The position numbers were made by a program, and so were the translations under genes. Below the pieces are notes generated by a model. The model did no database searches. It saw only the letters and a program-made list of their open reading frames with translations, and had not been told where the DNA came from. DNA of 64,000 nucleotides from an uncultured Clostridium sp. (lineage in GTDB: Bacteria > Bacillota > Clostridia > TANB77 > CAG-508), in the NCBI GenBank assembly GCA_948473335.1, contig CAOKXF010000001.1, positions 137,379 through 201,378 of the forward strand, in the 5' to 3' direction. Within the stretch, counting starts at the first letter, position 1, and every line of letters begins with the position of its first letter. Below are positions 1 to 13,308 of the stretch, one piece after another.

Positions 1-1164
1 CAATTAGCTAATATTGTAGCACAAAGAATGAACAAAAAATTTGACATATTATTCATAGATTTAGAAGCACAATATAGACATACAATAAAGCATATAGAAG
101 AGCTAAAGGAATTATCACAAATAAGAGAATTTTATCATATTGCTTTACCAATAGCATTAAGAAATGCAGTATCAGTATTACAGCCTAAATGGATATGTTG
201 GGAAGAAGAAAGTAAGCACTTATGGGTAAGAGATATGCCAAAAGACAGTATAAATATAAAGAACTGTCCATTTGAATGGTTTAAAAAAGGAGAAGAATTT
301 GAAGAATTTACTGTACAATTTGCAGATTGGTATCAAAAAAAATATAAAGGAAGAGTAGCATGTGGAGTAGGAATTAGAACAGATGAAAGTCTAAATAGAT
401 TTAGAACTATAGCATTTAAGGGAAGAAAAGAAACTTATCAAGGATATAACTGGACAACAAAAGTAAAATTAAATGAAAGACACATTAATGTATATAATTT
501 TTATCCAATATATGATTGGGCAGCAGAAGATATATGGGGAGCAGTAAGTAAATTTAGTTTCAAATATAATTATACATATGAGTTAATGTATAAAAATGGA
601 ATAAGCATATATGAACAAAGACTCTGCCAACCATATGGAGATGACCAAAGGAATGGACTAGATCAATTTAAAGCATTGGAATATGACACATGGAGTAAAA
701 TATTAAATAGAGTAAATGGAGTTAATTTTGGAAATATTTATTGTAAAACAACAGCATTAGGAAATATAAAATCATGCAAACCAGATTTTATGACTTGGCA
801 AGAATATACAGTATTTTTATTAGAAAGTATAGGTATTTATAATAGAGATTTAATGTTACATTATTATAGAAAAATAAAGAAATTTATGGTGTGGTATAGT
901 TGCAAATATGGAACAGAAATAAAAGATATTCCAGATATAGCAGAATGTAGATTAGAAACACAGAAAAAAGCAATATCATGGAGAAGAATAGCAAGAGCAA
1001 TCGAAAAGAACGATTTCTATCTAAGAAGATTATCATTTGCACAAACAAAAAATGATGATAAAGAATTAATGGAATTAATACATAAATGGGACAACTTATT
1101 AAATAAAACAACAAAGACAGATGATAAAGTTTTACAAAAAATAATTGAAGAAAAATGTGTATAG
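1..1164 (+). CDS. IbrA-like PAPS-reductase-fold protein (PP-loop ATP pyrophosphatase family with C-terminal DUF3440-like region). The 5' end is truncated by the window edge
   Basis: The frame is open from nt 1 (QLANIVAQR-MNKK...) with no stop, so the Met at 28 is internal. The motif ILFIDLEAQY resembles the 'vvFvDTG.eFPET' region that follows the SGGKDS PP-loop in PAPS reductase/DndC-like enzymes, and that PP-loop would lie upstream of the window. A ParB-like partner gene follows, as in ibrA/ibrB pairs. Confidence 0.5.
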   Translation, partial: QLANIVAQRMNKKFDILFIDLEAQYRHTIKHIEELKELSQIREFYHIALPIALRNAVSVLQPKWICWEEESKHLWVRDMPKDSINIKNCPFEWFKKGEEFEEFTVQFADWYQKKYKGRVACGVGIRTDESLNRFRTIAFKGRKETYQGYNWTTKVKLNERHINVYNFYPIYDWAAEDIWGAVSKFSFKYNYTYELMYKNGISIYEQRLCQPYGDDQRNGLDQFKALEYDTWSKILNRVNGVNFGNIYCKTTALGNIKSCKPDFMTWQEYTVFLLESIGIYNRDLMLHYYRKIKKFMVWYSCKYGTEIKDIPDIAECRLETQKKAISWRRIARAIEKNDFYLRRLSFAQTKNDDKELMELIHKWDNLLNKTTKTDDKVLQKIIEEKCV

Positions 1165-1175
1165 GAGGATAAAAA

Positions 1176-1568
1176 ATGATAGTAAAAATGATAAATAAAG
1201 ATGAAAAATTTTATCAATATATGGGGAAGTTTTTTGGATCAAGGTTAGTAGAAAAACAAACCAATGATAGAATATATGATGATAATGATAAGGAATGGTA
1301 TATAAATCTAGAAGAAGAGAGAGTGGTTGCATTTGTATCTGTTAGCCAACATAAAATAAAAAATATATATGCAACAAAGGAAAAATATTTAGAAGAAGTA
1401 TTAAATGAAGTAAAAGATGATAGCAATCTTACATATAGTGTTGTAACAAAAAACTATGAAGAAGTATATGAAAGATGTGGATTTAAAATACATAAAGATG
1501 ACATTTATAGAAATTTTGTTACTATATATATGGAAAAAGATAATGAAACAGAACTAGTAAAAAAATAA
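1176..1568 (+). CDS. Small hypothetical protein (130 aa) sitting between the IbrA-like and IbrB-like genes, possibly a GNAT-like fold
   Basis: Strong SD AGGAGGA lies 7 nt upstream of ATG. The gene is tightly packed with its flanking genes (11-nt and 19-nt gaps). The C-terminal YERCGFKI resembles motif B of acetyltransferases, but this is weak. No confident family assignment. Confidence 0.4.
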   Translation: MIVKMINKDEKFYQYMGKFFGSRLVEKQTNDRIYDDNDKEWYINLEEERVVAFVSVSQHKIKNIYATKEKYLEEVLNEVKDDSNLTYSVVTKNYEEVYERCGFKIHKDDIYRNFVTIYMEKDNETELVKK

Positions 1569-1587
1569 GGAAGGAATAAATGTAGAA

Positions 1588-2172
1588 ATGAACGAAATAG
1601 AATTTCCAGTATTAAATGTAAAAATGGTAGATATAGATAAAGTAATAGCAAATGATTATAATCCAAATAAAGTAGCACCACCAGAAATGCAATTATTAAG
1701 ACATTCAATAGAAGAAGATGGATATACACAACCAATTGTAACATATTATGATAAAAAAAGGGATATCTATATAGTAGTGGATGGTTTCCATCGTTATAGG
1801 TGTGCTAAAGAATATTTCCATCTAAAACAAATTCCTATAGTAACGATAGATAAGGATTTAGAAAACCGCATGGCAAGTACAATAAGACATAACAGAGCAA
1901 GAGGAACACATCAAATTATAGATATGTCGAATATAGTTATAACACTTACGCAAAATGGGTGGACAGAAGCAAATATATCAAAACATTTGGGAATGGAATT
2001 AGATGAAGTAATTAGATTAAAGCAGATAACAGGTTTGAAAGAAGTATTTTCAAACCATACATTTAGTAAATCTTGGGAAGAATTTGAAGATAATAATATT
2101 ATACAAAAGATTCATAAAGAATTATTAAATTCAAAAGAAGTAAAAGAAAACAAAAATGATGAGAAATCTTAA
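1588..2172 (+). CDS. ParB-like nuclease (ParB/Srx fold) domain protein, IbrB-like
   Basis: N-terminal DIDKVIANDYNPNKV...IVVDGFHRYRCAK and HNRARGTH motifs are typical of the ParB/sulfiredoxin fold. SD aaggaagga is present. The gene is co-oriented with and adjacent to the PAPS-reductase-like gene. Confidence 0.65.
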   Translation: MNEIEFPVLNVKMVDIDKVIANDYNPNKVAPPEMQLLRHSIEEDGYTQPIVTYYDKKRDIYIVVDGFHRYRCAKEYFHLKQIPIVTIDKDLENRMASTIRHNRARGTHQIIDMSNIVITLTQNGWTEANISKHLGMELDEVIRLKQITGLKEVFSNHTFSKSWEEFEDNNIIQKIHKELLNSKEVKENKNDEKS

Positions 2173-2826: not shown

Positions 2827-3366
2827 TTAATTCCTCCTAGTAATACCAAATTGACCAGTTATAGGATCACAGAAATAACCTAACTGAGGTGGGTAATAAG
2901 TAAAAATTAAAAAACATAGCAATAAAACTATTAAAATAATAAAAAAAGTAAGAAAATTGCAAGAAGAGTCTGAAATCATTTTATTATAGGCAACAAATTC
3001 TCCAAGTAGAACCGCAACAAAGAAACTACCTATATCTAAAATAGCGAAATTGGTTCCAATAATACCAGTATAAGTATAAAAGAAAATAGTGATGAAAGAC
3101 ATAGAAACAATTATGCCTAAAACTTTAGAACATAAAAAATTAGGAGATACTTTAAACATATAGAAATATCCAAACAAAATAGTCAGAAACATAGGAAAGA
3201 AAACTAATTTCATATGTTCCCAGGTACTTTCATTTATACTGCTAAAACTAGCAACAAATGAATTATAATTTGACCATTCATATGTAAAATGTAACAAAGT
3301 TCCTAGAATCATAGTAAATATGATAGAAAGTATTTGAAATATTAAAATTTGTTTATTATTTTGCAT
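2827..3366 (-). CDS. Integral membrane protein (5-6 TM helices), uncharacterised, co-transcribed upstream of the DUF3298 gene
   Basis: Strongly hydrophobic translation. The start was chosen at MQNNKQ because a GGAGGA SD precedes it. Confidence 0.5.
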   Translation of the reverse strand: MQNNKQILIFQILSIIFTMILGTLLHFTYEWSNYNSFVASFSSINESTWEHMKLVFFPMFLTILFGYFYMFKVSPNFLCSKVLGIIVSMSFITIFFYTYTGIIGTNFAILDIGSFFVAVLLGEFVAYNKMISDSSCNFLTFFIILIVLLLCFLIFTYYPPQLGYFCDPITGQFGITRRN

Positions 3367-3760
3367 ATAATCCTCCATAAAGTAGTATATGCATATAATT
3401 TCAAAGAGATACAAAATAAGGGAGGAGATATCTAGAAAACTTATCAGTGCAATTCATGATTTTTATGAAGATACTAAGGAAAACGAACCTTGTTGTATAG
3501 AAAAAAGAATAATAAAGGAAAAACTAAACTTTATTATTCTCTTTATTTTTAAAATATGCACAATCAGAAGTAGAAGAAAGAGTTGAATTAACAATAACCT
3601 CATAACAACACTTTCCATCTTGCTGAAAAATGCAATTAGAAGAACAATTAATATTAGTCAAATAAATCACCCAAAGATAGTATTTCTAACAAAAAGAAAA
3701 ATATACTAAAACTTAGTATTGAATATTGATATTGATTATATATATATATTATAAATTAAT

Positions 3761-6452: not shown

Positions 6453-8303
<1,851 letters not shown>

Positions 8304-13231: not shown

Positions 13232-13308
13232 GCTCCCTTAGCTCAGTTGGTTAGAGCAACCGGCTCATAACCGGTAGGTCCAAGGTTCAAGTCCTTGAGG
13301 GAGCACCA
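13232..13308 (+). tRNA. tRNA with CAU anticodon. It is either elongator Met or lysidine-modified Ile2, and it is not the initiator type
   Basis: The cloverleaf can be drawn by hand: 7-bp acceptor stem gctccct/agggagc, D-arm agctcagttggttagagc, anticodon loop ctCATaa, T-arm caaggttcaagtccttg and an encoded CCA. There is no C1:A72 mismatch and no 3-GC anticodon stem, so it is not initiator. Confidence 0.85.

Follow-up and report, generated by a model that had tools for sequence, protein, structure and literature searches.

An IbrAB-family locus with an intercalated GNAT-fold gene in uncultured gut Clostridia

The locus considered here raises the question of whether three tightly packed genes, located at the left edge of a 64,000-nucleotide stretch from an uncultured Clostridium sp. 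(contig CAOKXF010000001.1, positions 137,379 to 201,378; this whole stretch is referred to as the window), constitute a single system, and which activity such a system might possess. The outer genes belong to the IbrA and IbrB families, and a small open reading frame (ORF) of 130 amino acids (aa) is wedged between them. IbrA/IbrB pairs are very common, yet no member has a defined reaction. The layout of the ORFs given in an earlier note on this DNA, including the gaps of 11 and 19 nucleotides (nt) with Shine-Dalgarno sequences and the opposite-strand DUF3298 and membrane-protein neighbours, was confirmed in the sequence. The three genes make up a co-transcribed, translationally close-packed operon, the products of which form a conserved functional unit. 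While the IbrAB family itself is already known, the arrangement is new as a three-component variant, in which a GNAT-fold protein is added and which is chromosomal in a lineage of gut Clostridia. The triad is organised as follows:

1-1164, + strand: IbrA-type gene (PAPS_reduct PP-loop domain and DUF3440), residues 43-429 of 429; from Pfam, PHROG and conspecific contigs
715-720, + strand: IbrA codons AAT GGA (Asn-Gly), the site of an extra C in 34 related species; in frame in the window
1165-1175, + strand: spacer of 11 nt with the Shine-Dalgarno sequence GAGGA, before the small ORF; read in the sequence
1176-1568, + strand: GNAT-fold protein of 130 aa, member of an IbrA/IbrB-associated GNAT family, motif A deleted
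1569-1587, + strand: spacer of 19 nt with the Shine-Dalgarno-like sequence GGAAGGA, before IbrB; read in the sequence
1588-2172, + strand: IbrB-type gene of 194 aa, ParB/Srx nucleotide-binding fold followed by a helix-turn-helix

The IbrA reading frame (+1) is open from window base 1 through the TAG at 1162-1164, and the missing 5' context was taken from more than 22 metagenomic contigs harbouring an identical 130-aa protein. In these conspecific contigs, the complete IbrA is 429 aa long with SLSGGKDS at residues 31-38; since the window begins at residue 43, the PP-loop lies 5 residues upstream of its edge, as had been anticipated. The protein displays PAPS_reduct (PF01507; 47.2 bits at full length and 25.7 bits for the window fragment, cutoff 22.5) followed by DUF3440 (PF11922; 88 bits, cutoff 25), both above their gathering scores, together with the PP-loop signature SGGxDS. 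It matches PHROG 2302 (E-value 5.5e-59) and is 37.2% identical to the annotated IbrA of Escherichia phage PhiR5_2 over 90% of its length (E-value 7e-66), with 33-38% identity to IbrA of Streptococcus thermophilus and E. coli phages. Relatives occur in 223 phage records, the closest named one coming from Clostridium phage phiCs5676-1 (51.5% identity).

Alignment of seven IbrA proteins (from Clostridia, phage, E. coli and of the actinobacterial type) revealed 60 invariant positions, the PP-loop included, and no invariant cysteine, which makes redox or sulfur chemistry of the CysH/DndC kind unlikely. The identity of the protein as CysH was rejected on curated model scores (TIGR00434, 21 bits against a cutoff of 165; PRK02090, 27.5 against 154) and the lack of an invariant cysteine. 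CysD was rejected at 29 bits against a cutoff of 195, and TtcA on its curated model score along with the absence of conserved cysteines. DndC identity was also discarded (TIGR03183, 19.9 bits against 290.4), and the PADLOC model of DndC matched IbrA with 24.7 bits over 70 residues only. Compared with DndC, SspD and BrxP, IbrA has weak local similarity to DndC but lacks conserved cysteines or Fe-S ligands; this lack, the low score and the absence of DndA/D/E-like partners among the neighbours further argue against sulfur chemistry.

The third gene encodes a protein with a ParB_N domain (PF02195; 35.5 bits, cutoff 26.3) and the IbrB motifs NDYNPN, DGFHR and HNRARGxH (here TIRHNRARGTH), and it is encoded next to IbrA. 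It is 52-56% identical to phage genes annotated as IbrB or 'ParB-like' in 226 phage records from very different hosts (48-56% when all the phage IbrB compared are included), and such conservation (~54% across phyla) implies a tightly constrained pocket. These matches, together with the 37% identity of IbrA to its E. coli phage counterpart, uphold the IbrA/IbrB assignment proposed earlier. Among solved structures, none was matched by IbrA, while IbrB gave only a weak ParB match. IbrB has its N-terminal fold in common with the ParB-CTPase clamps (Spo0J, KorB, VirB) and the ParB/Srx enzymes (sulfiredoxin, SbnI, SerK), with a helix-turn-helix added, and it scores equally against these three enzymes. 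Unlike the clamps, it has DGFHR and HNRARG instead of the CTP-binding motif GERRxRA and is devoid of the C-terminal dimerisation domain. A partition ParB of the Spo0J type was rejected: TIGR00180 (parB_part) gave 31.6 bits against 58.45, the parS consensus had 0 matches at up to 3 mismatches within the 64 kb, and no ParA gene adjoins the triad in the window or the conspecific flanks.

The 130-aa ORF is a genuine gene and not a chance ORF, having 805 homologues at E-values of 1e-3 or below, 35 residues invariant among 31 orthologues and a ratio of non-synonymous to synonymous polymorphism (pN/pS) of 0.40, indicative of purifying selection. Against Pfam, NCBIfam, PADLOC and PHROGs, the window protein gave no match. 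When 1.84 billion representatives were searched with a profile, 151 relatives emerged, and 21 of the 50 aligned ones match Pfam Acetyltransf_1/7/10 and carry the acetyl-CoA loop R-x-x-G-x-G/A. The earlier suggestion of a GNAT for the wedged ORF is therefore borne out at the level of the fold, while motif A (R/Q-x-x-G-x-G/A) and Pfam-level membership were not found in the window protein: its subfamily has a 4-residue deletion and no glycine at the acetyl-CoA pyrophosphate loop (motif A). The N-terminal signature FY..G.F..R...DDD.K.W and the motif Y-x-x-C-G-F are retained, and F12, Y13, G17, D35 and W41 hardly vary within the family as a whole. Compared with PanZ, small GNAT-fold regulators and canonical GNATs, the window protein differs by the absence of a Pfam GNAT match, the deleted motif A, the family-specific N-terminal signature and its obligate linkage to IbrA/IbrB. 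Within this lineage, a role as a non-catalytic adaptor, like that of PanZ, is more probable than one as an acetyl-CoA transferase; the canonical and motif-A-deleted members provide ready-made biochemical controls. A phage origin of the small ORF was rejected, as tblastn against 50,697 phage records gave no match for the window GNAT and one weak match for a canonical relative.

How far the three genes travel together was assessed in a scan of one genome per species, which gave 115 species with a relative, all represented by metagenome-assembled genomes of uncultured gut Clostridia; the conservation counts rest on 80 loci fetched from these 115. All 80 have the three genes side by side, with order and strand unchanged, and the identities are 77-86% (IbrA), 55-74% (GNAT) and 80-95% (IbrB). 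The ratio of non-synonymous to synonymous substitution rates (dN/dS) is ~0.11 for IbrA, ~0.28 for GNAT and ~0.08 for IbrB. Divergence is housekeeping-like on the same contigs, gatB being 84-94% identical where IbrA is 81-86% and IbrB 84-93%. The flanks vary by species, the commonest order being murJ-like, HU, triad, aspS (convergent), phosphoribosyltransferase and uvrC, while the window flanks (PdaC, DUF6512, nth, hrcA) recur in the two closest species only. In 26 of the 80 species, a co-oriented 92-aa HU gene (PF00216) lies directly 5' of IbrA with a gap of ~176 nt (for example, L100:7240-7518); it was not found upstream of IbrA in the window's own species. The triad is vertically inherited, strongly constrained and placed among housekeeping genes in at least 80 species of gut Clostridia (115 matched). 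Its conservation as a unit, on which the earlier proposal depended, holds in these species as well as in distant lineages, whereas the placement in a mobile or defence island is not supported, given the housekeeping neighbours (HU, murJ-like, aspS, uvrC, cotJ/nth/hrcA) and the gatB-like evolutionary rate. A slowly evolving chromosomal triad in such surroundings suggests a cellular (epigenetic or chromatin) role and not conflict alone.

Beyond these species, every distant member of the GNAT family with a readable context adjoins IbrA, and every contig of sufficient length also has an IbrB, 49-56% identical to that of the window. The distant arrangements are listed below (A, IbrA; G, GNAT; B, IbrB; x, another gene):

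L011: A-G-B
L095: A-G (contig ends)
L096 (297-7351): A-(85 aa, opposite strand)-G-B; adjoins type I-E Cascade genes casA/B/7/5
L099 (3-4520): A-G-B; between Csf2-like and Csf3-like genes, both below curated cutoffs
L103 (281-9641): B-G-A; phage-like contig
L105: A-G-B
L106: A-x-G-...-S-adenosylmethionine (SAM) methyltransferase-...-B
L108 (Streptomyces plasmid NZ_CP117710.1, 1-8607): A-B-G; beside type I-E casA/B/7/5

That the GNAT co-occurs with IbrA and IbrB in whatever order the genes stand speaks strongly for a functional link. In the Streptomyces plasmid, the GNAT is a 143-aa 'hypothetical protein' matching the family profile (E-value 1.4e-28). On the phage-like contig, it reaches 251 aa with an extra N-terminal domain, in a replication region encoding AAA_24, DUF669, a faint Nmad5 match, Mom, an SNF2/DEAD helicase and VRR_NUC.

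The IbrAB family at large, for which searches with IbrA and IbrB returned more than 8000 protein clusters each, is spread over phages, plasmids and chromosomes, and DNA-transaction proteins are found beside its members. In Firmicute phages, an SNF2 helicase, IbrA and IbrB follow one another just after the lysis module. IbrA homologues are present on 728 plasmids (Klebsiella 323, Escherichia 195, Ralstonia 129), with a ParB_N gene beside IbrA in 30 of 30 among the matches listed. On the E. coli plasmid pRHB23-C24_2 (L109, 33121-34976), the pair adjoins F4 fimbrial genes and insertion sequence elements. IbrAB of phages and E. coli comprise the same two families in the same A-then-B order; however, the inspected phage and plasmid genes overlap directly, as do those of E. 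coli, whereas here a GNAT gene lies between them. Furthermore, the present neighbourhood is housekeeping and chromosomal instead of a prophage or island, and the window IbrB is without the ~45-residue N-terminal extension of phage and plasmid IbrB.

Another comparison is offered by CasCysH of type IV-B systems, a PP-loop, cysteine-less protein of the PAPS-reductase family for which a role is not established and redox or sulfur chemistry has likewise been argued to be unlikely (PMC8175902). IbrA, too, is a PP-loop member of this family without a conserved cysteine, and the L099 triad is positioned between Csf2-like and Csf3-like genes. Together with the trios beside type I-E genes in L096 and L108, this suggests that IbrB and the GNAT may also be present in array-less Cascade-like systems that have a 'CysH-like' accessory. 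No csf1, csf2, csf3, cas11 or cas genes were found in the window or the conspecific flanks.

Among the 79 related species that could be scored, 34 have IbrA split at one site into ~283 and ~148 codons. The split species read GTN AAY C GGN GTN AAY TTY where the others read GTN AAY GGN GTN, and the window is in frame (712-729, GTA AAT GGA GTT AAT TTT). The extra C between AAY and GGN in the 34 species (L017, ~1135-1150; L019, ~7535-7550; 32 further loci among L017-L089) means that a +1 frameshift is needed for the synthesis of IbrA. The 0-frame codon created by the inserted C is always CGG, the rarest arginine codon, used once in 18,677 codons of window ORFs of at least 200 aa and ~0.4-0.5 times per 1000 elsewhere; in most split species, a 0-frame stop follows 2-9 codons later. 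On removal of the C, the C-terminal part is open for at least 147 codons (median 148) in every split species, and it is no less constrained in frameshift than in in-frame species (pN/pS 0.138 against 0.174), purifying selection extending to the 24 codons ahead of the restart that most split species have. The sequence around AAY C GGN varies synonymously. The first possible restart lies 24 codons downstream in 24 of the 34, and the frameshift species show almost no variation in the peptide encoded in between (GVNFGNIYCKTTALGNIKSCKPEF). On the IbrA tree, split and in-frame species intermingle. Judged from these sequences, the pattern fits a candidate programmed +1 frameshift of the hungry-codon type at CGG, and the in-frame and frameshift alleles provide natural controls for translational-recoding experiments.

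As to the activity of the triad, we tentatively favour an IbrAB-family complex that is vertically inherited, depends on ATP, is targeted to DNA and acts in modification or regulation, the GNAT being its family-specific subunit. PP-loop enzymes that act by adenylation include TilS, CysD and FAD synthetase. IbrB would bind DNA via its helix-turn-helix and thereby place the complex on DNA, while its ParB/Srx pocket would bind or hydrolyse a nucleotide, as in DndB, DpdB, KorB and VirB. IbrA would use ATP to adenylate a substrate oxygen in a non-redox reaction of the TilS/CysD/FAD-synthetase type, which would allow transfer of a group onto nucleic acid, most likely DNA, or onto a DNA-bound ligand, with the GNAT supplying or positioning the acceptor or donor. 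As a third, family-specific subunit, the GNAT would be part of the machine and would narrow the possible chemistry. The outcome might be a change in gene expression through an epigenetic or chromatin mark, and such a mark would also explain the activation of silent prophage genes (the eib genes) that Sandt and colleagues reportedly observed for E. coli IbrAB in 2002. The proposed pairing has parallels in other systems. ParB-like partners of DNA-modifying enzymes have precedents in DndB/DndC and DpdB/DpdA, and DndB-DndC likewise unites a ParB/Srx-fold protein with a PAPS-reductase-fold PP-loop enzyme on DNA (PMC12839542).

Several points weigh against the modification or regulatory complex. The structure model of IbrB is of moderate confidence (predicted local distance difference test score 67.6). 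Instead of DNA, IbrA might act on RNA, on a small molecule or on a protein, namely IbrB itself. Most IbrAB pairs, including those in the 223 phage records and on the 728 plasmids, are without the GNAT, which marks it as an accessory and not as core chemistry. The 'core-like' nature of the triad is derived from genomes selected for carrying the gene. Apart from the E. coli eib activation, we know of no biochemical or genetic data for any IbrAB member, and a literature search on IbrAB, DUF3440, CasCysH and PAPS reductase with ParB found no biochemical characterisation.

Among the competing explanations, a pure transcription regulator deserves the most attention, although we consider it somewhat unlikely. 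IbrB would here be a DNA clamp or anti-silencer of the VirB or KorB type, switched by a nucleoside triphosphate; the roles of IbrA and the GNAT would be confined to adjusting the nucleotide or ligand state of IbrB, and nucleic acids would be left unmodified. Against this, a PP-loop enzyme of 429 aa whose invariant motifs look catalytic is a costly accessory for a clamp; moreover, IbrB carries DGFHR and HNRARG in place of GERRxRA and scores equally well against sulfiredoxin, SbnI and SerK, and the phage versions accompany SNF2 helicases, Mom and methyltransferases. Even if the module were only a regulator, it would be an unusual one, with a ParB fold and an enzymatic partner. Anti-phage defence, or another conflict system, appears improbable. 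It is favoured by the existence of relatives on phages, on 728 plasmids and in the vicinity of Cas genes (type IV-like or type I-E), as well as by a 2026 preprint listing operons of a nucleoid-associated protein (NAP) and PAPS reductase (+ParBc) among candidate defences. The NAP of that preprint is YejK/NdpA, however, and no such gene is present here; a PANGU-like NAP defence (cluster 8/9) was rejected on this ground, the HU (PF00216) neighbour of related species being of another family. In PADLOC-DB 2.0, the triad proteins gave weak partial matches only (DndC, E-value 2e-4; PDC-S05, 0.075; ParB domain of MTase_II, 9e-6), amounting to no more than DndC and methyltransferase domain similarity. 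Defence is further disfavoured by the presence of the triad in 80/80 species with housekeeping neighbours and housekeeping-like divergence.

The proximity to defence genes, which the earlier note proposed to check, comes down to a single defence-like neighbour outside the window, a 933-aa superfamily 1 (SF1) helicase (AAA_11/AAA_12, C-terminal DUF2726) located 361 nt upstream of IbrA in this species (L004:3077-5878). It resembles MkoA/MkoC of Mokosh (PADLOC E-value 1e-56) and hence lends defence some support; nevertheless, it was found in 0/80 related species and decays within the species, being intact in 3 of 7 conspecific contigs (L001-L005, L007 and L008) and split into 2-3 ORFs in the other 4. 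The helicase was therefore rejected as a fourth component, and the analogy with the helicase-IbrA-IbrB order of phages fails as well, the enzyme being SF1 here and SNF2 in phage. A toxin-antitoxin-like pair of ParB-like antitoxin and DUF3440 toxin is very improbable. TASmania lists lmo1309 (ParB) and lmo1310 (DUF3440) as such a pair in the Listeria core genome (PMC7020466), but the assignment is by neighbourhood alone, and modules of this type do not usually include a 429-aa enzyme or a third gene, nor do they usually evolve slowly and vertically. It is scarcely credible that the locus is a decaying, non-functional prophage remnant: the closest named relative of IbrA is indeed from phage phiCs5676-1 (51.5% identity), but all three genes remain intact, selection on them across the 80 species is purifying, and no phage genes are present in the flanks. 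An ordinary sulfate-assimilation CysH next to a chromosome-partition ParB has a negligible probability. The common Pfam domains PF01507 and PF02195 would permit it; the cysH, CysD and parB_part scores are nevertheless below cutoff, and conserved cysteine, parS and adjacent ParA are absent, so the outcome that the earlier note had named as contrary to its proposal did not occur.

There is also a bolder extension of the modification or regulatory complex, which we regard as rather doubtful. In it, the triad would be a so far unrecognised machine that modifies DNA (or RNA) in an ATP-dependent reaction without sulfur; IbrA would adenylate an oxygen of a base or of the backbone, with IbrB providing the targeting to nucleic acid and the GNAT delivering or holding the transferred group. 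It would serve housekeeping epigenetics in gut Clostridia and self-protection or host takeover in phages and plasmids, and could represent the missing effector chemistry beside array-less Cascade-like (type IV-B or minimal I-E) complexes; in ~40% of the Clostridia species, it would be gated by the programmed +1 frameshift on CGG.

The surroundings of the triad include the following further features:

2154-2184, no strand: perfect 12-bp inverted repeat AAATGATGAGAA / TTCTCATCATTT with a 7-nt loop (= L004 8519-8549)
2169-2849, convergent: PdaC+DUF3298 protein; from Pfam
2827-3414, convergent: DUF6512 membrane protein; from Pfam

Upstream, beyond the helicase, the conspecific contigs carry cotJA/JB/JC and gatCAB. 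A promoter scan gave one good match to a -35 and extended -10 element, 24 nt 5' of the IbrA ATG (L004, outside the window); the number of promoter-like sites in the scan was not above chance. Rfam detected no RNA family in the triad region, its sole match in the window being a tRNA at 13232-13305. Downstream, nth, hrcA, grpE and dnaK follow the PdaC+DUF3298 and DUF6512 genes. The inverted repeat covers the overlapping stop codons (4-nt overlap) of IbrB and the convergent PdaC/DUF3298 gene, and the hairpin is a possible bidirectional terminator shared by both. The window as a whole (1-64000) is very AT-rich, with 27.1% G+C.

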